From NCBI RefSeq assembly GCF_000018465.1, contig NC_010085.1, forward strand, positions 1,110,001 through 1,142,000: a stretch of DNA of 32,000 nt, written 5' to 3'. Under the pieces are notes generated by a model. It was not told the origin of the DNA. It saw only the letters and a program-made list of their open reading frames with translations, and did no database searches. The stretch is from Nitrosopumilus maritimus SCM1 (lineage in GTDB: Archaea > Thermoproteota > Nitrososphaeria > Nitrososphaerales > Nitrosopumilaceae). Shown piece after piece: positions 1-32,000 of the stretch (position 1 is its first letter; every line of letters starts with the position of its first letter). The translations under genes and the position numbers were made by a program.

Positions 1-718
1 CATGGTGTTGATATACTTGAGCATGCATTAGATAGCGTCCCAATCGATAGTTTTCAATTGAGTCTTTTCCTTTATCCTGAATGCAAATTCTTTGTTCGTC
101 TGTTTCAGTACTAGTTATAGTGTGGATTATTCTTGCTAAATCAAATTGTCCGTAAGCAACACCAATATGATATGAATCTCTTCGTAGATAATCCATCTTA
201 TCTACATCTAATGCACTTGAAATAACATCACTTGCCAGAGTACTCAATCCTGAATCCCAATCAGAAACAGGTTTGTGGTCTAACAGTTGGATTATTTTTT
301 GAGATTTATCACCTAAAATACTTTGAAGTTCAGGGTTTTTTGAAATGATCAACATAGAAATCCATTCATGATCAATTTTGTTTTCATTAACATTTGAGAT
401 TACGGATTCAAATAGATGAGAATAGGGTCCATGTCCAACATCATGAAGTAATGCAGCCAGTCTTACAATTTCTTTAGTAGTATCATCAAAATTCAATTGA
501 TCACATACTTTACCTGCAAGATGCGTAGCCCCAAGAGAGTGTTCAAATCTAGTATGAATTGCAGTTGGATAAACAACAAATGCATGAGATAGTTGTTTTA
601 TGTTCAACAATCGACGGAAGGGTGAAGAGTCAATCACCTGTTGTTCAGTTTTTGAAATATCTATAAAGCCATACAGAGGATCTCTAATGGATTTATACTT
701 AAAATCAATTTTTGACAA
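1..718 (-). CDS. HD-domain phosphohydrolase, SAMHD1/dGTPase-like (COG1078-type). About 239 N-terminal codons are in the window; the C-terminus lies beyond the window start
   Basis: Absent from the ORF track because it runs off the window. My minus-strand translation from TTG at 718 reads (M)SKIDFKYKSIRDPLYGFIDISKTEQQVIDSSPFRRLLNIKQLSHAFVVYPTAIHTRFEHSLGATHLAGKV..LAALLHDVGHGPYSHLFE..DVDKMDYLRRDSYHIGVAYGQFD..YQHH. It has the H...HD metal-binding motif and the D-x-D..YL-x-RD motif typical of this family. In-frame TAG and TGA codons immediately upstream force the TTG start, which overlaps the upstream gene by 14 nt. Confidence 0.8.
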   Translation of the reverse strand, partial: MSKIDFKYKSIRDPLYGFIDISKTEQQVIDSSPFRRLLNIKQLSHAFVVYPTAIHTRFEHSLGATHLAGKVCDQLNFDDTTKEIVRLAALLHDVGHGPYSHLFESVISNVNENKIDHEWISMLIISKNPELQSILGDKSQKIIQLLDHKPVSDWDSGLSTLASDVISSALDVDKMDYLRRDSYHIGVAYGQFDLARIIHTITSTETDEQRICIQDKGKDSIENYRLGRYLMHAQVYQHH

Positions 719-1259
719 TATTCACTAATTTTAATTCTTTAAGAAGTCCTACACCTTGAGATACATCATCAGGAGTAAGCTCCCAACCAAGTTTTTCTGC
801 AGTTTTTATTGCATCATCATAATCCATTACTTTTTCTTTATCAGGATTGTTTTCCAACATAAAATACATTTTTGCAGCATATGAAAGAGGTGCAGTTTTT
901 AATTTACAAAATTTATCACATGTAGATACCAAATATTTAATTTTTTGATATTCTGTAGGAAATGTAGATTTTACATGATTTGCCATATCTTGCCCATCAG
1001 GGGTTAAACGATACTTATAGCCCTCATGCATTTTTCCAGGAATTTTAATTTCATCAATAAAAGAATAGGTAACCATTTTTTCTAAAGCTAAACTAAGTTC
1101 TGGACTGTAAGGACCATAATAGTGAGGTTTGTAAACAGGGAGTGTAAGTCCTTCAATAGTTTTGTTTGAAAGGTATACTAGTTTATGGATCGCTGTTCGT
1201 CCAACAATTTCACCATTGTTTGAATCAAGTATTGATTCAACAGTTTCATAAACATCCAC
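705..1259 (-). CDS. Small partner protein of the HD hydrolase. Winged-helix-like, possibly DUF4065/SocA-Panacea-like or YwgA-like (tentative)
   Basis: 184-aa ORF with a GTG start, the first start codon after an in-frame TGA. The pattern GRTAIHKLVYLS..YYGPYSPEL..GYKYRLTPDG recalls DUF4065/Panacea-type proteins plus a wHTH wing; this assignment is from memory only. The 3' end overlaps the HD gene start, indicating an operon. Confidence 0.55.
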   Translation of the reverse strand: MDVYETVESILDSNNGEIVGRTAIHKLVYLSNKTIEGLTLPVYKPHYYGPYSPELSLALEKMVTYSFIDEIKIPGKMHEGYKYRLTPDGQDMANHVKSTFPTEYQKIKYLVSTCDKFCKLKTAPLSYAAKMYFMLENNPDKEKVMDYDDAIKTAEKLGWELTPDDVSQGVGLLKELKLVNIVKN

Positions 1260-1484
1260 AATACAACACCAACAAATTAATCAAATGTTCCACGTATATG
1301 ACATTTTTAAAAATATCTCAGATCTAAGTTGATTTGTTAATGATTTTAACTTGACACTTTCCAAAAACAAATTATTCAAGAGATAAAATTATCTGGAAAT
1401 AAATAAAACATGAGGTTATTATGGTATTACCTTTTAAGAATCAACTTTTTAGGAAGAAGTCTCCAACAGATAGGGATCTAAAAA

Positions 1485-2732
1485 TTGTATAAATTTGCAC
1501 ATGTTTCAGATATTCACCTAGGATTTCAAGACAAAAAAGAACTTCAAAAAATAGAACAAGAGGTATTTGAAGAAGTGGTTTGCACATGCATAAAACAAAA
1601 AGTAGATTTTGTGTTGATTACAGGTGATTTATTTCATAGAAACCTTCCAGAAATGAGAGTTCAAAGATTTGCATTTAAAAATTTCAAAAAACTTTATGAT
1701 GCAAAAATTCCAATTTATGTAGTATATGGCAGCCATGATTTTAGCCCTATAGAATACTCAGTGATAGATCTACTAACAGATGTGGGATACTTAACCAAAG
1801 TTTCAAAGGAACACACAAACAATGAAAAAACAGAATTAGATTTTACTGAAGACCCAAAAACAAAAGTGAAATTAGTAGGAATTTCAGGCAGAACAGCAGG
1901 AATAGATAAAGAAAATTATGAAAATTTGGAACTACCAGTACTAGATAATAGCTTTAAGATATTTTTGTTTCATATTGGTATTGATGAACTAAACTCTAGT
2001 TCAGAAATCGATACTAATTCAATACCCATAGAATCATTGCCAAAAGGATTCGACTATTATGCAGGAGGACATGTACATGTTTTCTCACACAAACAGGTTA
2101 AGAATTTAGGAGAAATATGTTATCCAGGAACCCCATTTGCAGGATATCATAGTGATTTAGAAGAAAACGCCAAGCAAGTTAAAAGAGGATTTGTAATAGT
2201 TGAGTTTGACAATAAAATTAAAAATGTAAAATTTTGTGAAATAAAAAAAACAGATTATGAGTTATTAGAATTTAATGCAAATGGAAAAACCGCAAATGCA
2301 TTAAACATAGAGATTTTAAAAAAAATATCACAAATCATACCCGAAAATAAAATAATATTATTAAAAGTACAAGGAGAATTGAAATCTGGAAAAACAACCG
2401 AAGTGAATTTTATAGAATTTAAAGAAAAATTATTACAGTCAGGAGCAAGAGAAGTTAATGTAAATAGAATTAATTTATTCTCAAAAAAATACCATATTGA
2501 AAAAATTGAAGCAGGGAAAAAAGAAGAGTTAGAAAATAAAATTTTTGAGGAAAATATTAAAAAAATCAAAACTGAGCAACCAGAACTAAGTGGCGAAAAA
2601 GGAATTCTTTTTGCAAAAGAATTACTCCAATTTTTAAAAGAACCAATAAACACAAATGAAAAGAAAATAGATTATCAAAAAAGAATTAGTGCAGCAGTTT
2701 TAGCAATGATGGGAATTGAAATGGAAAAATGA
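1485..2732 (+). CDS. Mre11/SbcD-like metallophosphoesterase nuclease, island-borne paralogue
   Basis: 415-aa ORF. The TTG start is forced by an in-frame TAA at 1479-1481. Calcineurin-type motifs occur in Mre11 order: HVSDIHLG (I), ITGDLFH (II), GSHD (III), LFHIG (IV), GGHVH (V). By eye it aligns with the canonical Mre11 at 30342 (VDFV..GD.FH). An ATGA stop/start overlap joins it to the next gene. Confidence 0.85.
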   Translation: MYKFAHVSDIHLGFQDKKELQKIEQEVFEEVVCTCIKQKVDFVLITGDLFHRNLPEMRVQRFAFKNFKKLYDAKIPIYVVYGSHDFSPIEYSVIDLLTDVGYLTKVSKEHTNNEKTELDFTEDPKTKVKLVGISGRTAGIDKENYENLELPVLDNSFKIFLFHIGIDELNSSSEIDTNSIPIESLPKGFDYYAGGHVHVFSHKQVKNLGEICYPGTPFAGYHSDLEENAKQVKRGFVIVEFDNKIKNVKFCEIKKTDYELLEFNANGKTANALNIEILKKISQIIPENKIILLKVQGELKSGKTTEVNFIEFKEKLLQSGAREVNVNRINLFSKKYHIEKIEAGKKEELENKIFEENIKKIKTEQPELSGEKGILFAKELLQFLKEPINTNEKKIDYQKRISAAVLAMMGIEMEK

Positions 2733-5149
2733 TTCTAAAGTCTATTCAATTAAACAATATCAGAAGTTACACTAATGAAATTATAGAATTTCCTCTTGGA
2801 ATTACACTATTTGAAGGGGATATTGGTTCAGGAAAATCCACAATTTTAATGGCAATCGAATTTAGTCTCTTTGGAATAGGCAACAACAAAGGAAACTCGT
2901 TATTAAAGACTAATGAAGATGAAGGATTTACTAAATTAGAATTTAGTGTAGAGGGTAAAAAATATGAAATATGTAGAAAATTAAAAAGAAAAAACAAATC
3001 AATAAGTCAGAATAGTGGATACATAATTGAAAATGAAAAAAAGACAACACTCTCAGCAACAGAATTAAAAAAACGCATTATTCAAATTTTAAAATTCAAT
3101 GAATCAAGTGAAAGTAGAGCACATAGCAGAATATTTCGATATGCAGTATATACACCACAAGAAGAAATGAAAATGATACTATCAGATTCAGAAAAACGTT
3201 TGGAAACAATTCGAAAGGCATTTGAAATGGATGCATACAAAAATGCAATTTTAAATTCAGATTTAATCGCCAATATTTTAGATAAAATTTCTGTAAGCCT
3301 AGAAACCACAGTACAAAACCTACAGAAAAAAGAAAAAGAATATTTTGAAACTCAAAAAGCTATTGCAAACGCACATAGGGATCAAAATGAATTATCAATG
3401 GAAATAAAAAATTTAGAAAAGAGGAAAGAATTCGTTGAAGAGAATTTAAATCAGTTAAAAAATAAAGAGAAAGATCTCATAAAATTTTATGAAGAGCAAA
3501 AACACATTATAGAAAAAATTAAAAAAACAGAAAAAGAAATCAAAGAAAAAAATGATGAAATTATAAAATATGAGAAAAAAATTGCATTGAATAAAAACAA
3601 TATTTCTAAATTAAAATCAATAAAAAAACCCACAACCATGTCAATAAAACAAATCGATACGAAAATAGAAAAATATCGAAGAGATGAAGATTTGTTAACA
3701 AATATAAAAATCAAAATAGAAAAAATGAATTCCAGATTAGATACGTTGTCAAAAATTCTTGGAAAAAATGAGAAAAATACGCCTAAAAAATTAGAACAGA
3801 GTATAAAAAATTTAGAAGAAAGTATAGAGATTGAAAAAAATCAATTAAAAAATATGGAAAAAAATAAGAATGAATTACTAAAAATTGAAACTCAATTAGA
3901 AGTACAAACAGAAGAAATTGAAAAAAGACTGAAAAAAATTTCAAAATTAGATTTTAAATGTCCCACTTGTGAGCAAATAATTGAAGAAAAATATGTTAAA
4001 AAAATTCAAAATGAAAATAAAAACCAATTATTAAAAAATAAAAAAATGATAGAAGAAATCATTAGTAAAAATAAATTTAATGAAGATTCGATTCTTGAAT
4101 TACAATCAAAAATTAGCAAAATTGAAGAATTATTAAAAAAATCAGTTTCACAAAGACCATACTTAGTAGAATATTTACAAATAAAAGAAAATCACAATGA
4201 AGAAATAATTCTAAAAAAGAAGTTAGAGAGAAAAATACAGCAAGAAAATAAATCTGAATTTAATGATCCTATAAAATATTATTTAGAACTTAATAATAAA
4301 TTACAAAATTATGAAAAAGCCAAAGAAGATATAAAAAAAATTACAGAGGAAAGTAGAGAATTTAGAATTAAAATTCTTACTTTAGAAAAAAATTTACGTA
4401 ATTCCAATAAAAAATTAGAAATTGATACAAGACGTCAAGATGAACTAAATAAGGAAATTTTATCTTTCAAAAATATTCAAAACGATATAAAAAAATATTC
4501 AAAATATGTAACTGAAGTTAATGACAAATATCTTCTAATAAATAAAAAAAGTGCGTCAATTGAAACTAGAAAAAAATTTCTTGACGATGAACTTCAAAAG
4601 ATAAAGATTGAAATAGAAAATTCAGAAATCGCGAAGAAAAAATACGACCGATGTAATAATTTTCATGAGTGGTTAAAAGGATTTTTCGTTCCAATTGTAG
4701 ATATAATGGAAGCAAAAATAATGCAATATCTTCAATATGATTTTAACAACATATATCAAAACTGGTATTCTATTTTGGTAGAAGATCCATCTAAAGAATC
4801 TAGAATAGATGATGATTTTACACCAATTGTAGAGCAAGAAGGGTATGAAATGGAAATACACCATTTAAGCGGAGGAGAAAAAACAAGTATTGCATTAGCA
4901 TATAGATTAACTTTAAACAGTATGTTAAGAAGAGAAACTGAAAGTTTAAAATCCAATTTATTGATTTTGGATGAACCAACATACGGGTTTAGCAAATCTC
5001 AGCTTTCAAAAGTCAAATCCATTCTAACAGAATTAAAATCAGAACAAATAATCCTAGTATCTCATGAAAAAGAATTAGAAGGATACGCACAAAATATTTT
5101 TCAAGTTACAAAAGAAAACGGAATATCTAAGATTTCTAGACTAAGTTAA
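2729..5149 (+). CDS. Rad50/SbcC-like SMC-family ATPase with a central zinc hook, island-borne paralogue
   Basis: 806 aa. Motifs: Walker A GDIGSGKST (aa 30-38), Q-loop YTPQEE, CPTC zinc hook at aa 411-414 (nt 3959-3970) in the middle of a long K/E/N-rich coiled coil, signature LSGGEKTS, Walker B LLILDEPT, H-loop VSHEKE. Confidence 0.88.
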   Translation: MILKSIQLNNIRSYTNEIIEFPLGITLFEGDIGSGKSTILMAIEFSLFGIGNNKGNSLLKTNEDEGFTKLEFSVEGKKYEICRKLKRKNKSISQNSGYIIENEKKTTLSATELKKRIIQILKFNESSESRAHSRIFRYAVYTPQEEMKMILSDSEKRLETIRKAFEMDAYKNAILNSDLIANILDKISVSLETTVQNLQKKEKEYFETQKAIANAHRDQNELSMEIKNLEKRKEFVEENLNQLKNKEKDLIKFYEEQKHIIEKIKKTEKEIKEKNDEIIKYEKKIALNKNNISKLKSIKKPTTMSIKQIDTKIEKYRRDEDLLTNIKIKIEKMNSRLDTLSKILGKNEKNTPKKLEQSIKNLEESIEIEKNQLKNMEKNKNELLKIETQLEVQTEEIEKRLKKISKLDFKCPTCEQIIEEKYVKKIQNENKNQLLKNKKMIEEIISKNKFNEDSILELQSKISKIEELLKKSVSQRPYLVEYLQIKENHNEEIILKKKLERKIQQENKSEFNDPIKYYLELNNKLQNYEKAKEDIKKITEESREFRIKILTLEKNLRNSNKKLEIDTRRQDELNKEILSFKNIQNDIKKYSKYVTEVNDKYLLINKKSASIETRKKFLDDELQKIKIEIENSEIAKKKYDRCNNFHEWLKGFFVPIVDIMEAKIMQYLQYDFNNIYQNWYSILVEDPSKESRIDDDFTPIVEQEGYEMEIHHLSGGEKTSIALAYRLTLNSMLRRETESLKSNLLILDEPTYGFSKSQLSKVKSILTELKSEQIILVSHEKELEGYAQNIFQVTKENGISKISRLS

Positions 5150-5219
5150 CAAAAGTGGAAAAAAAATTTAGAAAATAAATATCAATAAATGTTACAATGG
5201 AGATTTTTCACATATTTTT
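5150..5219. terminator. Convergent intergenic region with oligo-T runs on both strands; putative archaeal terminators
   Basis: Lies between the convergent rad50-like (+) and parA-like (-) genes. The plus strand has ATTTTTC and TATTTTTC near 5203-5219. The minus strand has a T8 run (complement of GGAAAAAAAATTT at ~5158-5170). Archaeal termination uses oligo-T tracts. Confidence 0.35.
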
Positions 5220-6212
5220 CTAGATGTTAGCGATGATTTTTTTTGCCAATTTTTCAAAATCAGCTTTACATTTAAGAGAATTCTCTTTATGAATTCCTAC
5301 GATTCCAGGTCCACTTAATTCAAAAATAGGTTTTTTCATTTGTTGAGATTTAGGAGCTAAACTGTGATAACTTTTAAAATTCCCTAATTTGTACGATCCA
5401 TTATTCAAATCAAGGACCATATTTTCATCAATTTCTCTTAATTTAGAAATGAGTTTTTCTTCTATAATTTGAGGTACTTGAGCAGACCAATGTTTCCATG
5501 CTTTGGTTTCAACGCCACGATAAATATTGAATTGTTGGTTGATGTAACCTGCAAAAACAGGTTTACCATCTTGAAGATCAATTGTCAATGATTCATTATT
5601 TTGAATAAATCGATTTTTTGCATTTGTCCAATCATCAATCCATTTTTTAAAAGTTATACCAATATTTTCTAATCCTCGAAGAGAAAATAAATCAGGTACA
5701 AGAGGTACAAAGAAATAATCACAAGATAACAACACAGAACGATTCAAACTTCCTAAGTTAGGTCCAACATCAACTAAAACATAGTCTATATCATTTGCAT
5801 TAGCAATTTTTTTGATCAACCTATAAATTGAAGACGTTCGTCTAAAACCAATTTCGTTACCTGCAAGAGTGTCAGTCCAAGCAGAAGAAAGTAATTCTTC
5901 AAAACCACTAAGAAGTAGATCACCTGCAATTAGACGTATTTCTCTATCTTTAACTTTGTATGGTTTAATATCAGCAATATCACCAGTACCTTTGATTAAA
6001 GGTTCAACTGCATAAAATACACTGTTTTGTGTTTTCCACAATGTATCAAGTTCATCATCAGTACAAATACACGACGTTAGATTACACTGTGGATCTAAAT
6101 CCACAAATAAAATTTTCTTCCCCATTTTCTCTAAGGCATAACCTAAATGAAACAAAAAAGTAGTTTTTCCAACACCGCCTTTATTATTGAATAAGACGAT
6201 ATTTTGAGCCAT
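5220..6212 (-). CDS. ParA/Soj-family ATPase with an extended C-terminal region
   Basis: 330 aa. Has the deviant Walker A NNKGGVGKTT, then VDLDPQCN, then Walker B-like DYVLVDVGPNLG. Roughly 100 aa follow the core ATPase. No ParB-like gene is adjacent. Confidence 0.85.
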   Translation of the reverse strand: MAQNIVLFNNKGGVGKTTFLFHLGYALEKMGKKILFVDLDPQCNLTSCICTDDELDTLWKTQNSVFYAVEPLIKGTGDIADIKPYKVKDREIRLIAGDLLLSGFEELLSSAWTDTLAGNEIGFRRTSSIYRLIKKIANANDIDYVLVDVGPNLGSLNRSVLLSCDYFFVPLVPDLFSLRGLENIGITFKKWIDDWTNAKNRFIQNNESLTIDLQDGKPVFAGYINQQFNIYRGVETKAWKHWSAQVPQIIEEKLISKLREIDENMVLDLNNGSYKLGNFKSYHSLAPKSQQMKKPIFELSGPGIVGIHKENSLKCKADFEKLAKKIIANI

Positions 6213-6445
6213 AAGACAGGTATTGTTATGAAACTAAAAGTTAAATCTGTTTGCCATAATACTATAAGAAAAACTATAGAATTCATACACATTAAAAATT
6301 AGATAGTGGGTTTGATTTTCTATATAAACAAAATTGATATAAATTGAGAAAACAAACAAAAATTAGAAAATAGACTATGTATTGACTGGAGTTCTACATA
6401 AAATACACACAAAGCATCTAATACAAATTTTGCACAAAATTCCAT

Positions 6446-6604
6446 ATGAGAGTTGATTCGTGCCGTAATTGTGGATATGTGTTAAATGTTCTAAAATACT
6501 GCAATGTATGTGCACAGCCTCTCCAGCTAAAGTGTTCACACTGCCTGAAATATGCCGATGATCCAATTCACTCTGTATGTGCTTCCAAGATTGCATTGTG
6601 CTAA
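6446..6604 (+). CDS. Small zinc-ribbon protein (52 aa), not listed in the ORF track
   Basis: My plus-strand translation is MRVDSCRNCGYVLNVLKYCNVCAQPLQLKCSHCLKYADDPIHSVCASKIALC*. It has three evenly spaced CxxC pairs (C6/C9, C19/C22, C30/C33) plus H42, C45 and C52. It is preceded by an AT-rich region shared divergently with parA. It competes with the listed 73-aa minus-strand ORF, which has no regular motif. Confidence 0.45.
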   Translation: MRVDSCRNCGYVLNVLKYCNVCAQPLQLKCSHCLKYADDPIHSVCASKIALC

Positions 6605-6611
6605 TTTTGCA

Positions 6612-7013
6612 TCATTTCAGCATATTCAGGCACGACTTGAAACCAGATTTACGGTTACGTCGTAGCAATTTCAGGACAGTATCAAATTTGGCAGAATCAA
6701 GGAATTTTTGAATTATACGAAGATCAGCAAAAGTGGTACGACCAGCATGAGAATTTATCTCATTAAACGACTTTGCAAACGAACCTGATTTGTAACGCCC
6801 TCTAGATTTTTTAAAAGCTGAAACTATTGCAACGCCAGCCAAACTACCACAAATAGATACAGTGTCATGAGATTCGATTTTAGAAAAGGATTCAGAAATT
6901 ACTTCTTTAGAGATTCTGTGAAATGCGTCACCATTGTTTTTTCTAGCAGAAATAATTTCAGAATAAATCACATCCACATATTCCAGTGAGCTATAAAACA
7001 ATCTGTCATTCAT
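6612..7013 (-). CDS. Hypothetical protein (133 aa), last gene of a three-gene overlapping operon
   Basis: The ORF start overlaps the end of the 500-aa gene by 8 nt. I recognise no motif. Confidence 0.6.
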   Translation of the reverse strand: MNDRLFYSSLEYVDVIYSEIISARKNNGDAFHRISKEVISESFSKIESHDTVSICGSLAGVAIVSAFKKSRGRYKSGSFAKSFNEINSHAGRTTFADLRIIQKFLDSAKFDTVLKLLRRNRKSGFKSCLNMLK

Positions 7014-8508
7014 GGCTGATTACTTTCAACAGGTTTTCTCGCAGTCGTTTTATGTCATAGGATATGGAATGTTTGTCAAATTCAGTTCCCTTTATTCCAA
7101 CATATATCTTGTCAAGGAGGGTTATGATTTGACCAATACTGGCAATGGGATCAAACTTTCCGTTGACAAGATCAAAGAGAGGTTTGAGAGATTCTAACTT
7201 TCCCAAAGTATGCTCTATTTTGTGTGAATGTTTCAGATGAGTTTCAAATGTATGAATTAATTCTTGCAGATATTCTTCATGTTGTTTTTGAATATGGTCA
7301 GCCTGAATCTTGTTTTGTTTTACAAGTTTGTTAATCTTATCTTCAGTATGAGATACGACAGAATTTAGTTCAGATTTTGCATGTTTTGAAATATCATTTA
7401 GATTGTTTTTTGCAAACTCTGTACCGTTTGAAATTTCTAATTTTATTTCATCATTGTGAGATTCAAGCCATAATTTTTTCTTCTCCAAAGACTCATTTTC
7501 TTTTTTGAGTTTAGAGTTAACAGAGTTGAGTTTCCTGAAGAGTTTTTTTGCATTTCCTGCCTTTTCCAGTTCTTCGAGAAATTCCTTAGGAGCCATCTCA
7601 AAACTATCAAAAATTTTCTGCCAAGAAATCAAGTCTTGTTCCAAAACGCCACTTTTCGTCAAATTTTCTACTGAGGAAATAGATTCAGCCATAGATTTGT
7701 GCCTAAGAAGTAGATTTTCGTGCTTAAGAGACAATTCCTTATACTTTTTTTCCAGATTTCCAGTCTTTTTCTCAACTTCATCTAGCTTTGACTGTTTCTC
7801 ATTCAATCTCAAATCGACTGATTCATCCTTACTCAGATAAGAAATGATCTTGGCAATATCATACTCTTGAGATTTTACATTCTGCAACACATTACATACA
7901 GAATCTGCATCAGACAAATCAAATCCAGATTTTTCTAGAAATTCTAAGGTTTGTGTTATTTTTTCAACCTGCTGTTCAGTAAGTTTGTTTTTCTTTAGTA
8001 ATGCAGACAGATTGTTTTGTGATTGTTTGTGTTGATCGGAGAGTTTGTCAATTGATAATTCCAATTCATTTTTGGTTTTTACTAGTTCTGTACAATGGTT
8101 TTCAATTTCATGTAACGGTACATCAGATTTTGATTGAATTTTAGAAATAGTATTGCATAATCCTACAAGATGTTCTGGAGAAAGTTCATTTTGTTTTGCC
8201 ATAGACAACACAGATTCTACAAACGAATGGATTTGTTTTGGATCAAGGTTGTGTTTTAAAAGTATTGAAAATACGACATGCCCATAAAATGCATCCTTTG
8301 GTTGCATTCCATTTTTTCTAATAATTTTAAAAAAGTCATGTATTGCATCAATTGTTTTTCTTTCAATCTTTGATGTAAAATCATTGATGTATTCAGATAT
8401 GGAACCAGTACTAACGCCAGTACTATCATGAATCTCTCGGACAGATTCACCCAAGAGGTATTTTTCAACTATATCATTACGGGTTTCATCAGAATATGGC
8501 TTTCTCAT
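7006..8508 (-). CDS. HTH-domain protein with a long coiled-coil region (500 aa), function unknown
   Basis: The N-terminus YSDETRNDIVEKYLLGESVREIHDSTGVSTGSISEYIN resembles a resolvase/transposase-type HTH. Residues ~130-440 are heptad-like and K/E/L/N-rich. An ATGA-type 4-nt overlap joins it to the upstream small gene. Confidence 0.75.
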   Translation of the reverse strand: MRKPYSDETRNDIVEKYLLGESVREIHDSTGVSTGSISEYINDFTSKIERKTIDAIHDFFKIIRKNGMQPKDAFYGHVVFSILLKHNLDPKQIHSFVESVLSMAKQNELSPEHLVGLCNTISKIQSKSDVPLHEIENHCTELVKTKNELELSIDKLSDQHKQSQNNLSALLKKNKLTEQQVEKITQTLEFLEKSGFDLSDADSVCNVLQNVKSQEYDIAKIISYLSKDESVDLRLNEKQSKLDEVEKKTGNLEKKYKELSLKHENLLLRHKSMAESISSVENLTKSGVLEQDLISWQKIFDSFEMAPKEFLEELEKAGNAKKLFRKLNSVNSKLKKENESLEKKKLWLESHNDEIKLEISNGTEFAKNNLNDISKHAKSELNSVVSHTEDKINKLVKQNKIQADHIQKQHEEYLQELIHTFETHLKHSHKIEHTLGKLESLKPLFDLVNGKFDPIASIGQIITLLDKIYVGIKGTEFDKHSISYDIKRLRENLLKVISHE

Positions 8509-8792
8509 AGGACAAATCCCCCACGTTCATTATCCTGTTCATTTTGTATAGTATGTTCATTGAAATTTTCAGAAAAGCCAGATGATTCATCAGAAATTCC
8601 AGATTGTTCATTTTGAAAATTTTTTTTATTATTTTCTATAATCTGCCTTCTAATGATGTATTTTGAAAAGCATTCTTTTTTGATACATACTGAACATACA
8701 TGATAGTCCTTTTCTGAACCAGATACGGAATAAGTGACAAGATAATCAGGTGTTTTTGAACAGCACTGAAGTTTTTGAACCATACATACCAT
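8505..8792 (-). CDS. Small Cys-rich, putative zinc-binding protein with an acidic/polar tail
   Basis: The track ORF starts at TTG 8816. I prefer ATG 8792 (MVCMVQKLQCCSKTPDYLV..HVCSVCIKKE) because a TATATTTA element on the minus strand (8826-8833) lies ~35 nt upstream of it. CC..CxxC cysteines are present. Confidence 0.55.
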   Translation of the reverse strand: MVCMVQKLQCCSKTPDYLVTYSVSGSEKDYHVCSVCIKKECFSKYIIRRQIIENNKKNFQNEQSGISDESSGFSENFNEHTIQNEQDNERGGFVL

Positions 8793-8836
8793 AAGGAACA
8801 GAAGGTTTATAGACAAACTGTGAACTAAATATAGGT

Positions 8837-9916
8837 ATGATTTCTACAGATAATTTAATTTCTGAACTAAATATAGTAAAAAGATCTTCTAGAAAAACCT
8901 TGCTTCCAAAAGAAGAGGACATAGTTGAAGAGGCAATACTAAACACATTATCCAGAGAAGGCACATTATCATTAACAAAACTAGTGAAAACCATAGAAAA
9001 CTATGGAGACTGGGAGGCCAAACGAAATTCAATCAAAAGAAGAATTGACGGACAAGAAAAATATCTGAGCTTACTTGATTATGAATTCATAAAAGAGAGA
9101 AAACCTGAAAAAAGAAGACCAGGTAAATATGGCAAAGAGTATTGTCTAACAACAAAAGGATTTTTGGCATCACTTGCAACAAAACACATATCATTTGATA
9201 GAACATACCTGTTCAAAAAATACATTACATTTCTTGATAACTACTTGGATGATAAAATAAAAAATGTTGGAGAAGAAGCTGGTTTTGATTCTACATTAGA
9301 TATTGAGACAAAAAACATGTTACTTGATGTTATTACTAATTACATAAAGAGTCAGATAACAGTTTTCTTGATTTGGCATGAGGCAAATGAAACATCAATT
9401 AGAATGAGAAAAAGTATGAAAGAGTATATTGAAGATTTCATCTTAACACATAGTGAATACATTCATCAAGAATTTCCGATGATGCTTGATAAAAAACGAG
9501 AAGAAGAATATCGTCAGGCATTAAGGAAATACTTTGAATATTCCAAAATACTACACTCGTTAATGGAATCACCAGTAGAAGACATACATTCAAAAAAAAT
9601 CAACATTAAATTAAATATGATCAGTTCATTTGTATTCAAATGGCATTTGTATTTTGATGAATTACAAATGAAAAATCCTATTGGTAATGATTATGACATT
9701 TGGAATACACATGCAGGGGTTTTATCGCGTCCAGAATATGGAATTGACATAGAATACGAAGGAACATTTGGACATAAAAGAAAAATTCAGCCAGATCTTA
9801 AATCAGAAACAGAAAAGAAAATACAACAAATTCTAAAAAAGAAAATTCCAATTACGGATATTTGGAGAAAACGAATGAGGAGAGAAGAGATAGGTAATGA
9901 CTGGCTTTATGCATGA
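8837..9916 (+). CDS. Hypothetical protein (359 aa), possible N-terminal winged helix
   Basis: Long ORF with an ATG start. The N-terminal segment EEAILNTLSREGTLSLTKLVKTIENYG is wHTH-like. I recognise no catalytic motif. The 3' end overlaps the integrase 3' end by 10 nt in convergent orientation. Confidence 0.7.
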   Translation: MISTDNLISELNIVKRSSRKTLLPKEEDIVEEAILNTLSREGTLSLTKLVKTIENYGDWEAKRNSIKRRIDGQEKYLSLLDYEFIKERKPEKRRPGKYGKEYCLTTKGFLASLATKHISFDRTYLFKKYITFLDNYLDDKIKNVGEEAGFDSTLDIETKNMLLDVITNYIKSQITVFLIWHEANETSIRMRKSMKEYIEDFILTHSEYIHQEFPMMLDKKREEEYRQALRKYFEYSKILHSLMESPVEDIHSKKINIKLNMISSFVFKWHLYFDELQMKNPIGNDYDIWNTHAGVLSRPEYGIDIEYEGTFGHKRKIQPDLKSETEKKIQQILKKKIPITDIWRKRMRREEIGNDWLYA

Positions 9917-10962
9917 TTTAGTTGCACATGCTCCATTCTGAGCTTGTCCTGCCACAACTCGTCTACCTTGGTTCTATAGTGCTCAAGTTCTGACTTTTCT
10001 CGCTCTAGTTGCTTGATTTTGAGCCTCTGGCGCTCTGAATCATCAATCATCAGTTCCACTATTGCCTTGCGAAACTCTGCAAAGCACTGTTCGCGCGTTG
10101 GCTTTAGGTACACGCCATCAAGTCCGTTCTTGTGTCCAAGTAGTTTTTCTGCAACATTAGAGTTTACGCTGTTTTTGAGTTTGAGTATGGTATTGAATCG
10201 CTTTCTAAAGCCATGATCCATCTGAGTATCAAAGTGATGATTTACTTTGGTTCGCTCCAATCCTGCGTTGTTAATCACCCTATACATGACAGAAATCACT
10301 CCGCTTCTCTGCATCGGAAGTACTTTTTTTCCGCGAGAATAGTCTCGTCGGAATACTGGAGAATTATCAGTGAGTTCCTCACCCTTTTGTCTTCGTTCCT
10401 CATGGTATTCATCTAGTGCCTGTGTTGCCTCTGGAGTCAGAAACGCCCAGTATTCCTCGTTGTCATTAGGATACAACAGTACGGCCTTGCATCCTTCTGG
10501 CATGTCATGAATGTACTTTAGAGTAAAGTTGCCATCAATTACTCCGATTCTTGCACCAGTTGATGCCAAGAAATGAATTATTGCACGATTCCTCTTTGAA
10601 GTAGTTGCTGCAAGCATCTTTTGGATTTTCTCTGTAGTCCAAGGCTTGAATCCGGCAGACTTTATCTTTGGAGGATACATCTTGCGGATAATATCCCAGT
10701 AGAGTGGAATCCTGTTCATTACAAAAAAGTGCCTTACACCAAGAAATAGAATTGGAATGGAATTTGGATGTCTGTTCTCTTTAAGATGGATTAGATAGTC
10801 TTCAACTAGTGTCTGGATTTCCTCAACTGGCTTTGCAATCAATCCATCAAAGGAATCAAACTCTGCAAAGTTTCTAAAGTTTTTTAGGTGGTCGCGGTAA
10901 TTGTTTAGCGTCTGACGAGATTTTATTCCCTGCTCAAATCGTAGAATTGACCTTTCTTTCAT
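9907..10962 (-). CDS. Tyrosine recombinase/integrase (XerC/D-like, apparently intact) with a C-terminal coiled-coil tail
   Basis: 351 aa. The catalytic signature is in the expected order: STGARIG (Arg), HGFRKRF (His-x-x-Arg), LLGHKNG (His), DGVYLKP (Tyr). The N-terminus has a SAM-like core-binding region. The tail ERQRLKIKQLEREKSELEHYRTKVDELW looks like coiled coil. Confidence 0.88.
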   Translation of the reverse strand: MKERSILRFEQGIKSRQTLNNYRDHLKNFRNFAEFDSFDGLIAKPVEEIQTLVEDYLIHLKENRHPNSIPILFLGVRHFFVMNRIPLYWDIIRKMYPPKIKSAGFKPWTTEKIQKMLAATTSKRNRAIIHFLASTGARIGVIDGNFTLKYIHDMPEGCKAVLLYPNDNEEYWAFLTPEATQALDEYHEERRQKGEELTDNSPVFRRDYSRGKKVLPMQRSGVISVMYRVINNAGLERTKVNHHFDTQMDHGFRKRFNTILKLKNSVNSNVAEKLLGHKNGLDGVYLKPTREQCFAEFRKAIVELMIDDSERQRLKIKQLEREKSELEHYRTKVDELWQDKLRMEHVQLNHA

Positions 10963-11004
10963 GATTAGTATAGGAATGAATCAACTATATCCCCTTCGTG
11001 CACT

Positions 11005-11027
11005 AAATAATTGAATTAAATAATTGA
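11005..11027 (+). repeat. Tandem direct repeat AAATAATTGA-att-AAATAATTGA in the island/core junction and ggr promoter region
   Basis: Exact 10-mer at 11005-11014 and again at 11018-11027, lying 17-39 nt upstream of the GTG start at 11044. Confidence 0.9.
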
Positions 11028-11043
11028 CAAAGAAACAAAAACT

Positions 11044-27976: not shown

Positions 27977-28813
27977 GTGCTCAATACAGTATACAAAGAT
28001 GCCATAATCAATAGAGACAAAATGTTGTCTATTCTAAAGGGCCCAAAATTTGAACAAATAATACAAAAAGCAAGAGAAAATTGGGTAGAATTTACGCCTG
28101 TAAAAGAAGAAGTCGTTACTGCAGGCATTGATTCAAGTTTTAACAACACAAAATTCCAAGGAATTGAGCTTTGGGCAACTACAGCAGTATCCATCAAGGC
28201 AGATGGAGAAGTGTTAGTTGATTTACATGAATCAGGATTAGGCTCAGATACTGATCTTTCACGAATTGCAAGTAAGATGGAAATTGACGCGTGTGAGAAA
28301 ACAGTGGATCAAGTAGATTTGGTACTGATGGATGGGTCTTTGCATTCTCAGTTTATGACAAGACAATCAGCTTTGGATGCACAGGTAGTCAGAACAATGA
28401 AAAAAAGAGACAATGTGATTTTTATTGCAAAAACATCAAACACAAAAAAACAATTTGAGAAATTAGGTTCACTTGCTGGAGATATTTTTTACTATAATCA
28501 TGTAACAAATAATCCAGGATTTAGTAAATTATTTGTAGAAAAAAAATATGGTTCAGATAAGGTCATTTCATCTACATTTGTAAGATTAAGTGATTCAACT
28601 CCAATTATCAAATTAGAATTTCTTGGAGAACAACATGGTGAAGGTGACATAAAGTCAGTCATGAACAAATTATACAAAACAAGTATTGGTGGATATCCAT
28701 ATGCACTAAAGCTTGCACATAATAACTGTAAAATATCTGATAAAGAACTTGCAAAAATGGTTAGTTTGTTAGGTCTAAGTAATGAGATCGGTTCACGTGA
28801 GGTATTAGGTTGA
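27977..28813 (+). CDS. nurA: NurA 5'-3' nuclease
   Basis: 278 aa with a GTG start (ATG 28021 is an alternative). It has a GIDSSF Asp motif and LVLMDGSL, matching the NurA-domain pattern, and it is the first gene of the herA-mre11-rad50 operon. Confidence 0.8.
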   Translation: MLNTVYKDAIINRDKMLSILKGPKFEQIIQKARENWVEFTPVKEEVVTAGIDSSFNNTKFQGIELWATTAVSIKADGEVLVDLHESGLGSDTDLSRIASKMEIDACEKTVDQVDLVLMDGSLHSQFMTRQSALDAQVVRTMKKRDNVIFIAKTSNTKKQFEKLGSLAGDIFYYNHVTNNPGFSKLFVEKKYGSDKVISSTFVRLSDSTPIIKLEFLGEQHGEGDIKSVMNKLYKTSIGGYPYALKLAHNNCKISDKELAKMVSLLGLSNEIGSREVLG

Positions 28814-30342
28814 GTTTAGGATTTGTAATTGGTGAATCAAAACCAACATTTGTCACTGCAATAACATCAAGAGCTTTGTCTGTTGGAGAATACATCAAGA
28901 TTGGTTCTGATGAAGGAGAGATATTAGGACTGGTTGAAAAATCATCAGTTACAAGTGCAGCATTTACAGATGTTAGGAATTTTGATGAAGCAGCTGAAAG
29001 TACAGAGATAGCAGAGTTAAACAAGAGAGATAAGACGTTTACTGCACATATTGGAATTTTGGGGTTTTTAGAAAATTTGAGAAAAGGTCAGTCAATTATT
29101 CCTGCAATTCCTCCCATTCCAGGCACGGAAATCACTCAACCAAGCAAACAAGACCTTGAGGAAATCTTTAGTCCCAAAAATGATGGATGGGTAAAGATTG
29201 GAAATCTTTTGAGAAACAAGACAATTGATGCTAAAGTGAATTTGGATAAAATTGTCTCAAGACATTTAGGAATTTTAGCAATGACTGGTATGGGTAAAAG
29301 TAATCTTGTATCACTAGTTACAAAACAAATTTCAAAATTAAAAGGGACTGTAATAATTTTTGATTATCACAATGACTACACAACATTAAACATTCCAAGA
29401 ATTAATGTGGTTGACGCAAAAATTAATCCAAGATTACTTGACGCAGATCAACTTTCAGAAGTTCTAGAAATCAGGGACGGTGCAAATGTTCAACAAAGAG
29501 TACTAAGAATGGCATTTACAAAACATGTCAAAGAATCAAAAGAATTTTGGAGTAAATTAGAAAATGAAATTGATTTTATTGTGAATTCAGAAGATAAAAA
29601 ACTAAAAGAGATTAGAACATCAGCATATAGAGTTCAAGATATAATAGAAGAAGCTCAAAAAAGATTTGAAGATATTTTAGATCCTGATATGGGAGATCCA
29701 ATTAGTTTTATCAAAGAAGGTCGTACCAATGTTCTCAATATTTCAGAATTGTCTGAAAAACAAGCAAATGTTGCAGTTGCATTTTACTTGCAACAACTAC
29801 TCAAAGACAGAAAAGATGCAAGTATTGCAAGACACGGTAAAAGTAAGAGAGAAAGAAACTATAGATTCAATTCTCCTATTTTTGTAATTATTGAAGAAGC
29901 ACATGTTTTCATTCCAAAAGACCACGATACTAGTGCAAAATATTGGGCAGCAAAGATTGCCAGAGAAGGAAGAAAGTTTGGATTGGGATTAGGAGTTGTA
30001 TCTCAGAGACCTCGAAGTGTAGATCTTAATGTTCTCAGTCAGATGGGCTCTTTTGCAATAATGAAGATAATTCAAGAAGATGATCAGCGCCAAATAGCCT
30101 CAGCAACAGAGTCAACTAGCCGTGAATTGATTGCTCAGTTGACCTCACTGAATGTGGGTGATGCAGTTCTAGTAGGACAATGGACAAATTTGCCATCACT
30201 AGTACATGTTGAAGAAGTAAAAGAAAAAATCATGGGAGCAGACCAAAGTGCAGTAAATGCTTGGGCCAATGCAGAAAAGATGAAAGAAGTTGCAGTAGAA
30301 TCAACACAAGGACTCGTTCAAAAAGATTTGTTATTAGACTGA
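28810..30342 (+). CDS. herA: HerA hexameric DNA helicase/translocase
   Basis: 510 aa. The TTG start is forced by an in-frame TGA at 28798-28800 and overlaps the nurA stop (TTGA). Walker A is AMTGMGKSN and Walker B is IFVIIEEAH, followed by GRKFGLGLGVVSQRP. Confidence 0.92.
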   Translation: MSLGFVIGESKPTFVTAITSRALSVGEYIKIGSDEGEILGLVEKSSVTSAAFTDVRNFDEAAESTEIAELNKRDKTFTAHIGILGFLENLRKGQSIIPAIPPIPGTEITQPSKQDLEEIFSPKNDGWVKIGNLLRNKTIDAKVNLDKIVSRHLGILAMTGMGKSNLVSLVTKQISKLKGTVIIFDYHNDYTTLNIPRINVVDAKINPRLLDADQLSEVLEIRDGANVQQRVLRMAFTKHVKESKEFWSKLENEIDFIVNSEDKKLKEIRTSAYRVQDIIEEAQKRFEDILDPDMGDPISFIKEGRTNVLNISELSEKQANVAVAFYLQQLLKDRKDASIARHGKSKRERNYRFNSPIFVIIEEAHVFIPKDHDTSAKYWAAKIAREGRKFGLGLGVVSQRPRSVDLNVLSQMGSFAIMKIIQEDDQRQIASATESTSRELIAQLTSLNVGDAVLVGQWTNLPSLVHVEEVKEKIMGADQSAVNAWANAEKMKEVAVESTQGLVQKDLLLD

Positions 30343-31484
30343 TGCAGTTTTCACATATTTCAGATACTCATTTAGGATTAGTACAGTATGGTTCAGAAGA
30401 ACGTGCACAAGATGTCTATGATGTGTTTAACCAAGCAATTGACACGTCAATTAAAGATCATGTTGATTTTGTAATATTTGCAGGGGACATTTTTCATGTT
30501 CCAAATCCAAACGGCACTGCAATTGTACAGATGGCAAATGGGTTAAAGCGATTAAAACAAAACAACATAGATTCATTTTTCATTTTAGGAGAACATGATA
30601 TTAGTAGAATTAGAACAACACCCATTCCCTATGTATACCACAATTTAGAATTCTCAAAGTATATTGGTCAAGGAAAACCAATAGAGTACAAAGGAGTTCT
30701 TCTTGCAGGTTTTGATAAGATAAGAAAAACAGAAATTCCTCAATACGAAGAAAAGTTTGCAGAAGTAGACAAAGCTGCTCAAAACTTTTCAGGACATAAA
30801 ATTTTAGTTTTACATCAAGGCATAACAGAGTTTAACAAATTTGCAGGAGAGTTGCAATCAACTGATCTTCCAAAAAATTTTACATATTATGCAATGGGGC
30901 ATCTTCATGATACAGATGTTAAAAAATTCAATCATCTAAATGGACCAATTGCATATCCGGGTTCAATTGAACTTACAACAAGTGAAGGAATCAAAGAAAC
31001 AAAGAAAGGATTCTTCGAAGTAGATATTTCAGGACAAGAAGCAAATCCAAACTGGATTGAACTTGATACAAGACCACAGTTTTCATTCAAGACAGATTAT
31101 CAAGAGATATCAAAGACCATAGATGAAATTTCAGAGAAAATTACTAGTCTTTCAAAAAAGCCTATCGTGGAGGTCAACATTCAAGGTGAAAACATAGAGA
31201 CGGACCACATCCAGGCACAAATTGCCAGGCTCAACTCCATAGTTTTGAGATGTTTTTGGCGAATCAGTACAAAGCAAGTTTCAGATTCATCAGTATTCCT
31301 AGACAAACCAAACATCATAGATGATGAGATGTTTAGACTTTCAGTTGATGCATTAGGCTCAGAGCAGGCTGCCAATCTTGCCATCAAGGAACTTCTACCA
31401 GTTTTATCATCAGGACAAATTCAAGAAGCATCGCAGATAATCATTGAAAATTTTGAAAAATTCAAAAAGGAGAGAAAACAATGA
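30342..31484 (+). CDS. mre11: Mre11 nuclease (canonical archaeal copy)
   Basis: The start at ATG 30342 (MQFSHISDTHLG) overlaps the herA stop by 1 nt; the upstream extension of the track ORF (30261) is rejected. Motifs: HISDTHLG, AGDIFH, GEHD, LHQG, MGHLH. Confidence 0.92.
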   Translation: MQFSHISDTHLGLVQYGSEERAQDVYDVFNQAIDTSIKDHVDFVIFAGDIFHVPNPNGTAIVQMANGLKRLKQNNIDSFFILGEHDISRIRTTPIPYVYHNLEFSKYIGQGKPIEYKGVLLAGFDKIRKTEIPQYEEKFAEVDKAAQNFSGHKILVLHQGITEFNKFAGELQSTDLPKNFTYYAMGHLHDTDVKKFNHLNGPIAYPGSIELTTSEGIKETKKGFFEVDISGQEANPNWIELDTRPQFSFKTDYQEISKTIDEISEKITSLSKKPIVEVNIQGENIETDHIQAQIARLNSIVLRCFWRISTKQVSDSSVFLDKPNIIDDEMFRLSVDALGSEQAANLAIKELLPVLSSGQIQEASQIIIENFEKFKKERKQ

Positions 31485-32000
31485 TCACATCAATTGAATT
31501 GGGGGATTTTTTAGCACATTCAGATACAAAACTAGAGTTTGATAACGGGGTAACTGTTTTTGTAGGACATAACGGTGCAGGAAAATCAAGTATTATTGAT
31601 GCAATTACATTTGCATTGTTTGGACAACATACAAGAAAATCAAACAAAGGGTTAATCAAACGTGGTGCAAATCAAGGATATTCCAAAGTAAATTTTTCAG
31701 TTAATGGAAAATCCTTTGAAGCTGTAAGAAAGATTGACAGTAAAGGAACTCTTTCAGCAAAATTCACTGAAATTGTAGGAGATGAAAAAATAGAGATTGC
31801 AGCAGGTGAACGAAAACAGTTTGGGGAATCAATGACTCAAGAAGTTGAAAAAGCAATTGGATTAGACTTTGAAAAATTAAAAGTTGCATCAATTGTACAA
31901 CAAGGAGAATTAAATGCAATAATCAATGCAAAACCAAAAGAGTTCAAAGAATTGCTGAATGCAATCATAGGGATTGACAAGCTTGATGTTGCTTCTGAAT
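31481..32000 (+). CDS. rad50: Rad50 ATPase (canonical copy), N-terminal 173 codons only; truncated by the window end
   Basis: ATGA overlap with the mre11 stop. My translation is MITSIELGDFLAHSDTKLEFDNGVTVFVGHNGAGKSSIIDAITFALFG..QQGELNAII, with Walker A and a Q-loop. Confidence 0.9.
   Translation, partial: MITSIELGDFLAHSDTKLEFDNGVTVFVGHNGAGKSSIIDAITFALFGQHTRKSNKGLIKRGANQGYSKVNFSVNGKSFEAVRKIDSKGTLSAKFTEIVGDEKIEIAAGERKQFGESMTQEVEKAIGLDFEKLKVASIVQQGELNAIINAKPKEFKELLNAIIGIDKLDVASE

Follow-up and report, generated by a model that had tools for sequence, protein, structure and literature searches.

This study concerns a 32,000-nucleotide (nt) window of the chromosome (1,645,259 bp) of Nitrosopumilus maritimus SCM1, the best-studied marine ammonia oxidiser, comprising positions 1,110,001–1,142,000 of NC_010085.1. 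As an earlier note on this DNA had proposed, the window holds two complete nuclease/ATPase pairs. One forms part of a nurA–herA–mre11–rad50 operon, the core operon of SCM1, which we call type A; a different operon lineage, described below, is called type B. The other pair, Nmar_1212 and Nmar_1213, encodes Mre11-family and Rad50-family proteins and lies near the left-hand end of the window in a segment that we call the island. Its neighbours, among them the HD, ParA-like and integrase genes that the note had listed, are an HD-family deoxynucleoside triphosphate (dNTP) triphosphohydrolase gene running off the left end (Nmar_1210), a gene for a Panacea-like protein of 184 amino acids (aa; Nmar_1211), a ParA-family gene (Nmar_1214) and a tyrosine integrase gene (Nmar_1219). 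The island proteins match GenBank ABX13106–ABX13110 and ABX13115 exactly; of the corresponding locus tags (Nmar_1210–1214 and Nmar_1219), Nmar_1210 and Nmar_1211 are named in the records and the other numbers follow from the consecutive accessions. The island pair is a real accessory Mre11–Rad50 gene pair, intact and selectively maintained, and is not a new kind of system.

Judged by its sequence, Nmar_1212 is an Mre11-family protein with motifs I–V for the binding of two metal ions. The five phosphoesterase motifs attributed to this nuclease can all be located (DIH at residue 9, GD at 47, GSHD at 82, LFH at 161 and GHVH at 195) and align in HMMER to D8/H10/D49/N84-H85/H173/H206/H208 of Pyrococcus furiosus Mre11. 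The sole deviation is the replacement of Asn84 by Ser, the metal ligands otherwise and the catalytic His being kept; every member of a 16-sequence alignment of the type B lineage has this Ser, which is therefore a lineage trait rather than damage to the island copy. Neither thaumarchaeal Mre11 lineage has the Asn of the canonical GNHD motif, the type B and island proteins having GSHD (window positions 1725–1736, residues 81–84) and type A having GEHD (residue 83 in locus L106, see below).

Database comparisons agree with this assignment. Nmar_1212 matches Pfam Metallophos (7.6e-16) and the archaeal Mre11 models of NCBIfam (4.5e-27 and 3.4e-26). Its scores against Mre11_Pyroc, Mre11_Sulfo and Mre11_Halo (95, 92 and 53 bits) do not reach the equivalog cut-offs of 600, 500 and 550, but nor does the core Mre11 of SCM1 (203 bits versus 500), indicating that these models do not cover thaumarchaeal sequences. 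The best sequence matches in the PDB are the Mre11 proteins of P. furiosus and Methanocaldococcus jannaschii. An AlphaFold2 model (predicted local distance difference test score 82.7, predicted template modelling score 0.73) shows nuclease and capping domains, a beta-rich domain lying at residues 235–333, and three helices at the C terminus (346–358, 370–384 and 394–408). When this model was compared with known structures using Foldseek, the top match was M. jannaschii Mre11 of the Mre11–Rad50 complex (3av0_A, E 9e-19, 429 aligned columns); P. furiosus Mre11 came next, and E. coli SbcD only in 48th place. On the model, then, Nmar_1212 has the Mre11 capping domain and the C-terminal helices for predicted Rad50 binding.

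Its partner, Nmar_1213, is recognisable as a Rad50-family ATPase with a long coiled coil and a putative zinc hook. The Walker A (GDIGSGKS at residue 30), Q-loop (YTPQ at 141), signature (SGGE at 714), Walker B (LLILDE at 744) and H-loop (ILVSH at 775) motifs claimed for it were all found, as was a mid-protein CPTC hook at residues 411–414 of 806. The protein matches Pfam AAA_23 (4.4e-20) and the NCBIfam Rad50 model PRK03918 (1.4e-37, far under its cut-off), and both lobes of the head match M. jannaschii and P. furiosus Rad50 structures in a PDB sequence search. It is 40% identical from end to end to the operon Rad50 of N. zosterae, both proteins being 806 aa long with the CPTC motifs aligned.

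At the level of the genes, the probability that stop-free stretches of these lengths would arise by chance at the local base composition is approximately 1e-18 for mre11 and 1e-37 for rad50. An in-frame TAA at positions 1479–1481 leaves the TTG as the sole possible mre11 start, and the two genes overlap by ATGA at 2729–2732, as do the core mre11 and rad50 genes at 31481–31484. The two intact open reading frames (ORFs), the full set of motifs, the CPTC hook, the ATGA coupling and the forced TTG start of the earlier note are thus each confirmed. Two features that had been presented there as distinguishing the island pair are real but have ordinary explanations. The TTG is forced, but it is the start that mre11 genes of this lineage normally use rather than a peculiarity: TTG stands at the type B mre11 start position in 23 loci and is also kept in L097, an island-type locus described below, so the island gene has inherited its start from the type B lineage. 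The A+T-richness, with only 10 G+C in the 60 nt at 3481–3540, likewise reflects amino-acid composition, the coiled coil being rich in Lys, Glu, Ile, Leu and Asn. Foreign codon usage as the source of the low G+C content was rejected, G+C at third codon positions (GC3) in the island pair (0.16–0.17) being host-like when set against that of host core genes (0.17–0.25).

Table 1. Coordinates of features in the SCM1 window, and of a regulator gene found near type B operons (positions are those of the window unless a locus is named)
Feature	Position	Strand	Remarks
Nmar_1210, SAMHD1-family HD dNTP triphosphohydrolase	1..718	-	3' two-thirds of gene; rest lies off the left end; start at 718
Nmar_1211, Panacea/SocA-like (antitoxin-type) protein, 184 aa	705..1259	-	Overlaps start of HD gene by 14 nt; bicistronic
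Divergent intergenic spacer between Panacea–HD pair and mre11–rad50 pair	1260..1484		
Nmar_1212, Mre11-family nuclease, 415 aa	1485..2732	+	TTG start; phosphoesterase, capping domain, C-terminal helical Rad50-binding region
Nmar_1213, Rad50-family ABC ATPase, 806 aa	2729..5149	+	ATG start; long coiled coil, CPTC zinc hook
Nmar_1214, ParA-family ATPase	5220..6212	-	Convergent with rad50; Pfam AAA_31 1.5e-28; PHROG ParA-like 1.1e-38
73-aa ORF upstream of parA	6375..6596	-	Last gene before the AAA799-P11 similarity breakpoint (about window 6600)
Integrase block	6612..10962	-	133-aa ORF, 500-aa coiled-coil/helix-turn-helix protein, ~95–103-aa ORF, 359-aa ORF (+), tyrosine integrase Nmar_1219 (9907–10962, -)
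SCM1 core type A nurA–herA–mre11–rad50 operon	27977..32000	+	Pfam NurA, DUF87, Metallophos, AAA_23; rad50 cut by window end
Csa3/CARF-like regulator	L002 13827–14570		Also L018, L020, L021, L037, L061, L074, L095

Where does the island pair come from? A search of a 5.8-billion-protein collection with the island Mre11 returned two proteins at 78% identity and then hundreds at 48–54%, the latter from Nitrosopumilus, Nitrosarchaeum, Nitrosotalea and others and nearly all 413–421 aa in length. In N. zosterae (NZNM25_09000 and neighbours) the homologue is the third gene of a nurA–herA–mre11–rad50 operon that encodes an Mre11 of 418 aa and a Rad50 of 806 aa, and it is to this lineage that the name type B refers. 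Identity between the island pair and the type B proteins is 48–54% for Mre11 and approximately 40–44% for Rad50, whereas the island and N. zosterae Mre11 proteins are each only 27–28% identical to the SCM1 core Mre11, and the HerA proteins of type A and type B (N. zosterae) share 25% identity; these low values point to two operon lineages.

To place the pair among its relatives, one genome per GTDB species was scanned, yielding 80 loci (individual loci are given here by their L numbers) in which ORFs were called and classified by phmmer. About 60 of the 80 carry the full type B operon, in Nitrosopumilus, Nitrosarchaeum, Nitrosotenuis, Nitrosotalea, Cenarchaeum and Nitrosopelagicus among others; the operon is also found, in more distantly related form, in Bathyarchaeia, Methanobacteriaceae and Thermoplasmata, whereas Nitrososphaerales loci have the mre11–rad50 pair only. 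Type B adjoins aspDH–nadA–nadC in approximately 25 Nitrosopumilaceae genomes from several genera, and it is this same slot that holds type A in SCM1 (window 23788–32000). The type A Mre11 proteins are 87–100% identical among N. maritimus, N. piranensis, N. koreensis, N. adriaticus and related genomes, the core Mre11 of the window being 100% identical to the N. maritimus protein. The island pair thus belongs to the family's usual syntenic operon lineage, and it is the canonical copy of SCM1 that belongs to the other.

The alternation of the two types in one slot is seen in Red Sea single-cell assemblies, in which L104 (type B, 7319–13667) and L106 (type A, 422–6007) occupy the same chromosomal position, bounded by aspDH–nadA–nadC and a Kazal/cupredoxin gene. 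Downstream of the operon the two loci are 99.4% identical in nucleotide sequence over 6,035 bp, whereas identity between their four operon proteins is only 24–30% and Rad50 is 693 aa long in one type and 806 aa in the other. One assembly, GCA_000746745.1, contains both operon types, each on its own contig. An entire DNA-repair operon thus appears to have been replaced within a population.

Neighbour-joining trees were built for Mre11 and Rad50 from Kimura-corrected distances with 60 bootstraps each. The island clade (SCM1, L097, L005, L006, P0002 and P0003, with L082 in addition for Rad50) was recovered as monophyletic in 60/60 bootstraps; when joined with every type B copy from Nitrosopumilales, it formed a group separate from the other archaeal copies in 58/60 (Rad50) and 60/60 (Mre11). 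The operon copies formed a clade without the island clade in only 2/60 (Rad50) and 0/60 (Mre11) bootstraps. This pattern places the island clade, whose branch is somewhat longer, within the radiation of type B sequences of Nitrosopumilales. The description of the pair in the earlier note as highly divergent is not borne out, since its proteins share approximately 50% (Mre11) and 40% (Rad50) identity with operon-encoded type B proteins of equal length and are nested in their clade; the accompanying statement that no thaumarchaeal system of this composition has been described is overstated, the protein families being those of the widespread type B operon.

As far as sequence comparison can show, then, the island pair descends from a type B operon, with loss of herA and nurA, and capture of mre11–rad50 from a thaumarchaeal core operon is the simplest history. 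That the pair encodes a functional, horizontally acquired Mre11–Rad50 complex can be proposed with some reserve. The idea that it is a relic of a type B operon that SCM1 itself once had and that was displaced was rejected: other genomes, too, have members of the island clade in the Panacea–HD context, and the genes are under purifying selection (see below). What appears to be an independent capture by an element-like region is found in Nitrosopumilus sp. OZ244651.1 (L044, 5936–12631), where a second mre11–rad50 pair without herA or nurA, close in sequence to that genome's core copy, is flanked by N6/N4 and D12-class DNA methyltransferase genes and then by an extra PCNA gene, the full operon being kept at the nad slot (L069).

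The island pair shares with the type B operon of N. zosterae its protein families, its lengths (415 versus 418 aa and 806 versus 806 aa), the GSHD motif, the use of a TTG start, the overlap between mre11 and rad50 and a CxxC hook in the middle of the protein. It differs in having no herA or nurA, in lying away from the aspDH–nadA–nadC slot, in its longer branch and in its linkage to Panacea-like and dNTPase genes. The note's claim that the pair has no HerA/NurA partner is upheld: no HerA or NurA homologue is present in the island, nor adjoining the island-type relatives L005, L006, L082 and L097. The pair therefore lacks the operon linkage by which the archaeal HerA–NurA–Mre11–Rad50 resection system is recognised.

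Several observations show the pair to be accessory. At 90% identity or above, matches to the four left-hand island proteins come only from SCM1 and from read-archive assemblies that presumably represent SCM1 too, and a scan of JGI metagenomes gave no close island-type relatives, just one irrelevant match at 21% identity. The single-cell genome AAA799-P11 has at the same site a GGR-like gene, the integrase gene and genes for proteins of 360, 92, 500 and 133 aa, at 82–89% nucleotide identity, whereas the ParA, Rad50, Mre11, 184-aa and HD genes are absent from that site. Similarity to locus L103 starts at position 11338 of locus L001, equivalent to window position 6618. The Mre11–Rad50 genes are thus strain-specific cargo beside a separately conserved integrase block, and their placement in a variable region by the earlier note was correct. 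ParA and the integrase were also both located as that note had described, but the integrase belongs to a block that is conserved without the pair. For this reason it would be too simple to assign the pair to the element of the integrase, and the candidate explanation that it forms part of that element is weakened. A search of L001 for att sites or direct repeats on either side of the island gave no convincing pair, and there is no tRNA gene in the window or in L001. The integrase gene has a G+C content of 0.417 (GC3 0.418) compared with 0.30–0.33 in its neighbours, and the 359-aa ORF of the block is far more diverged from its AAA799-P11 counterpart, with approximately 41% identity at the protein level. 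The integrase block may be an old, fixed cryptic element.

What is conserved together with the pair is the divergent gene pair to its left. Nmar_1210, which encodes 434 aa and is complete in L001 (4134–5438), matches Pfam HD (1.1e-12) and HD_assoc_2 (2.2e-13), and in the PDB human SAMHD1 (approximately 1e-35), the E. faecalis dNTPase EF1143 (2o6i, 1e-32) and 2hek (4e-47). Nmar_1211 is named in UniProt 'Antitoxin SocA-like Panacea domain-containing protein' and resembles the C-terminal region of DarG (PADLOC 7e-08, NCBIfam 6e-06); it has no Pfam match at E ≤ 0.1 and a sequence search of the structure database gave nothing significant. The arrangement recalls Panacea (PanA/SocA) toxin–antitoxin loci, in which a small Panacea-annotated gene precedes and overlaps an enzymatic gene in the toxin position. 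The bicistronic overlap is kept in L097–L102, where a Panacea-like gene of 182–188 aa precedes the HD homologue. This may be a nucleotide-depletion toxin–antitoxin or abortive-infection module. In the papers searched we found no description of a dNTPase as a Panacea partner, or of linkage between a Panacea–dNTPase pair and Mre11–Rad50.

The module is widespread in Nitrososphaerota (window 1–1259; L100, 6454–8326; L101, 6445–8314; L096–L099, 8400–10245), in the company of TIR, SIR2, GmrSD, HEPN, nSTAND3 and Prok-E2/ThiF genes, and in L082, L101 and L102 a cytidine/dCMP deaminase gene lies immediately beside it.

The four-gene block, comprising HD and 182–184-aa Panacea-like genes divergent from mre11–rad50, recurs with unrelated flanks. 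In L005, L006 and L097 these flanks comprise rve, DDE and IS66 transposase genes, a gene for a 1,760-aa glycosyltransferase and nSTAND3, GmrSD and AAA_5 protein genes; ThsB-TIR, GmrSD, HEPN, nSTAND3, DUF5677 and AAA_5 protein genes surround the copies in L096–L099. In Nitrosopumilus sp. OFTM383 (L082) the block adjoins genes for a 928-aa protein-primed-type PolB and a Cas1 fragment, with the deaminase gene downstream. The earlier note had stated that orthologues at a conserved syntenic core locus would mark the pair as an ordinary housekeeping paralogue; instead, relatives at 78% and 57% identity were found in unrelated contexts rich in insertion sequences (ISs), casposon genes or defence genes. 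The block is mobile among such variable regions. ParA does not travel with it: Nmar_1214 lies in the SCM1-specific segment outside the block, and no homologue was seen when L005, L006 and L082 were screened with it.

Two of these loci deserve a fuller description. In L082, PolB, a gene for an HxlR-like winged helix-turn-helix protein and a 152-aa C-terminal fragment of Cas1 (277–5810) make up a casposon remnant, and the downstream region at 12392–12517 contains a 56-nt near-perfect palindrome, an 18-nt arm of which recurs in inverted orientation at 17209–17226; no convincing pair of terminal inverted repeats was found around the L082 block. L096–L099 come from a single IS-rich sample (ENA ERZ26694896, four contigs of 140–423 kb) and contain four identical Panacea-like–HD pairs with differing flanks, one of which has a full Mre11–Rad50 pair, two IS-truncated stubs and one none, giving a snapshot of block duplication and erosion.

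Comparison of SCM1 with L097 indicates that all four block genes have been kept by selection. The ratio of non-synonymous to synonymous substitution rates (dN/dS) is 0.10 for HD, 0.16 for the Panacea-like gene, 0.13 for Mre11 and 0.24 for Rad50, and dS is approximately 1.0–1.2 in every case. The equal dS values argue for co-divergence of the four genes and the low dN/dS values for purifying selection. Amino acid identity is 78% for Mre11 and 60% for Rad50, the fastest-evolving protein of the block, compared with 77–81% for the other three. The divergent spacer is approximately 70% conserved with that of L097, including an A/T-rich TATA-like stretch, and the context of the TTG is kept.

Is the pair a variant of a known two-gene or defence system? 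Like bacterial SbcCD, it is a two-gene nuclease/ATPase without a dedicated HerA–NurA motor, and PHROG SbcC/SbcD-like families and TIGR sbcd/sbcc match it weakly. Unlike SbcCD, it is archaeal by sequence, with best NCBIfam and PDB matches to Pyrococcus, Sulfolobus and Methanocaldococcus. Lamassu, which has been proposed to have evolved from SbcCD (LmuB from SbcC) by recruitment of an effector (PMC12663957), shares with the island the presence of a Rad50/SbcC-like CxxC ATPase near defence genes and the idea of a sensor of DNA ends, but in the island pair the Mre11 nuclease is complete and the coiled coil is of full length, and there is no LmuA, no PADLOC LmuA match being found among the island proteins. 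It is highly improbable that the pair belongs to a known system of the structural maintenance of chromosomes (SMC) type such as Lamassu or Wadjet, or is a conserved housekeeping paralogue. In PADLOC the island Rad50 does match LmuB (5.8e-21), but the housekeeping Rad50 of N. zosterae scores better (3.4e-32) and even a 173-aa fragment of type A Rad50 matches at 5.7e-14, so the LmuB match reflects generic Rad50 similarity, in keeping with the proposed descent of LmuB from SbcC (PMC12663957). The 184-aa neighbour Nmar_1211 matches LmuC only marginally (1.5e-05 over 57 residues) and scores higher for its similarity to the C-terminal region of DarG; matches to Wadjet JetC are only at the level of the P-loop (4.9e-05 over 48 residues), and PADLOC found no JetA, JetB or JetD among the neighbours. 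Membership of Lamassu or Wadjet was rejected on these grounds, and the analogy drawn by the earlier note gains no specific support. As to a housekeeping paralogue, the distribution contradicts it, the pair being confined to SCM1 at 90% identity or above and missing from AAA799-P11.

Phages T4 (gp46/gp47) and T5 (D12/D13) encode Mre11–Rad50 pairs that serve recombination-dependent replication, the protection or processing of ends, or repair. The island pair resembles these in being carried on a mobile or accessory genome without HerA/NurA, but it derives from host archaeal genes and its block contains no virion or replication genes. Kinship with viral pairs, such as the T4 pair that the earlier note had cited, was not found: a scan of IMG/VR viral contigs with the family alignment gave no relatives, the island contains no structural or packaging genes, and PHROGs match only generic SbcC/SbcD and ParA families. 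Viral origin was accordingly rejected.

What, then, does the pair do? Because it keeps the company of defence genes and because SCM1 already has a complete type A system, we tentatively favour a defence-type role directed at non-chromosomal DNA; this reading comes from genomic context and is the least certain part of our account. By analogy with the family, Mre11 and Rad50 would form a complex of two subunits each (M2R2) joined at the zinc hook, in which the Rad50 heads, through binding and hydrolysis of ATP, would clamp DNA ends and thereby position the di-metal nuclease of Mre11 to cut free, hairpin-capped or protein-blocked ends. Lacking the HerA–NurA motor, such a complex would be expected to act as an SbcCD-like end or hairpin nuclease and not as a full recombination–resection machine. 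Its most plausible role would be that of accessory cargo that attacks incoming linear, hairpin or protein-primed replicons at their ends, possibly in coordination with the adjoining nucleotide-depleting toxin–antitoxin-like module. If the pair does act on foreign or element DNA, it would be an archaeal case of core repair machinery captured and re-used as accessory cargo.

A number of points weigh against this reading. It is drawn from gene neighbourhood only, at a handful of loci, and several of the defence-context loci (L096–L099) may be copies of one mobile unit in one IS-rich population. The trees are neighbour-joining ones on corrected p-distances rather than maximum-likelihood ones, no PADLOC model specifically recognises the pair, and a full-text literature search gave zero mentions of Nmar_1210–1214 or Nmar_1219. 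The HD family is large (4,876 matches), and Panacea–HD pairs occur without Mre11–Rad50 in L099, in Nitrososphaera near TIR and SIR2 genes (L100) and beside a Prok-E2/ThiF cluster and deaminase gene (L101 and L102). In L096 and L098 the pair is reduced to Metallophos stubs of 157 and 171 aa cut by IS66/IS240, and mre11 of L082 has one frameshift (its rad50, 48% identical, is intact). Mre11–Rad50 is therefore dispensable for persistence of the block and is sometimes decaying.

These last observations are what would be expected if the pair were a redundant or near-neutral repair paralogue, carried along through its linkage to a selfish Panacea–HD module, adding some back-up capacity for end processing, perhaps with the type A HerA–NurA, and being gradually lost, the module remaining intact where the pair is truncated (L096, L098) or absent (L099). 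The rarity of the lineage in databases and the rapid evolution of Rad50 would fit such a history as well. We nevertheless consider it unlikely, since dN/dS values of 0.13–0.24 across a saturated dS of approximately 1.1 indicate long-term purifying selection on both genes, the catalytic residues are all intact in SCM1, L097 and the Rad50 of L082, and the order of the block and its overlaps have been kept through at least three changes of genomic context.

A further possibility, and one that the presence of ParA beside the pair in SCM1 fits just as well as defence, is that the pair serves the recombination-dependent replication, the end protection or processing, or the repair of an integrated plasmid- or casposon-like replicon, Panacea–HD providing addiction and ParA partition. 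The SCM1-specific segment does consist of HD/Panacea, Mre11–Rad50, ParA and a small ORF, the L082 block does abut the casposon remnant, and the independent pair of L044, with its two methyltransferase genes and PCNA, suggests that capture of Mre11–Rad50 by element-like regions recurs. Even so, neither a replication initiator nor a primase or polymerase belongs to the conserved block, ParA does not accompany it, the integrase block is conserved separately, IMG/VR holds no relatives, and the flanks in L096–L099 are made up of IS elements and defence-type genes without a coherent replicon. On balance, maintenance of an element strikes us as somewhat unlikely. A survey of thaumarchaeal integrated elements (PMC6563490) makes no mention of Mre11/Rad50/SbcC or of an SCM1 element.

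The most ambitious interpretation goes further than the defence role that we favour and treats the whole block as an undescribed archaeal immune cassette, in which Mre11–Rad50 as end sensor and nuclease would be functionally coupled to a Panacea-controlled SAMHD1-like dNTPase: the complex would sense foreign ends as LmuB/LmuC do, free the dNTPase from a Panacea-type inhibitor and so starve the invader of dNTPs. The four genes have co-diverged and their divergent arrangement is kept in three contexts, the deaminase gene beside the block or HD homologues in L082, L101 and L102 suggests a nucleotide-pool theme, and Lamassu has been proposed to have arisen from SbcCD by the same kind of effector recruitment (PMC12663957). 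Yet Panacea–HD is widespread without Mre11–Rad50 and outlives its loss, the two pairs are transcribed divergently rather than as one operon, and linkage to Mre11–Rad50 is confined to one HD subclade, pointing to a single capture; such coupling, and with it the immune cassette, is improbable. Were it real, the block would be a living intermediate on the proposed route from SbcCD-type repair to Lamassu-type defence. In human cells SAMHD1 acts in partnership with MRE11, and a coupled cassette would be a prokaryotic parallel to this.

Even when read conservatively, the comparison shows end-processing genes to be unusually fluid in Nitrosopumilaceae, as seen in an escaped Mre11–Rad50 pair with a toxin–antitoxin-like dNTPase, in independent captures of such pairs beside PCNA and methylase or casposon genes, and in two very different operons that occupy one slot in genomes otherwise almost the same. 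Such fluidity hints at diversifying pressure on the repair machinery itself, possibly exerted by viruses or mobile elements.

Some further features of the operon loci were noted. A Csa3/CARF-like regulator gene (HFX_2341_N plus winged helix) recurs a few kb from type B operons (Table 1), and the type B operons of L092 and L095 sit away from the nad slot amid Mrr, methyltransferase/helicase and transposase genes. Directly upstream of type A nurA in SCM1 is a 317-aa ORF (window 26958–27911) with no Pfam match. At least eight other genomes have an orthologue (up to 558 bits) immediately before type B nurA, and the protein may be either a neighbour that both operon types have kept or a partner of theirs that has gone unrecognised.

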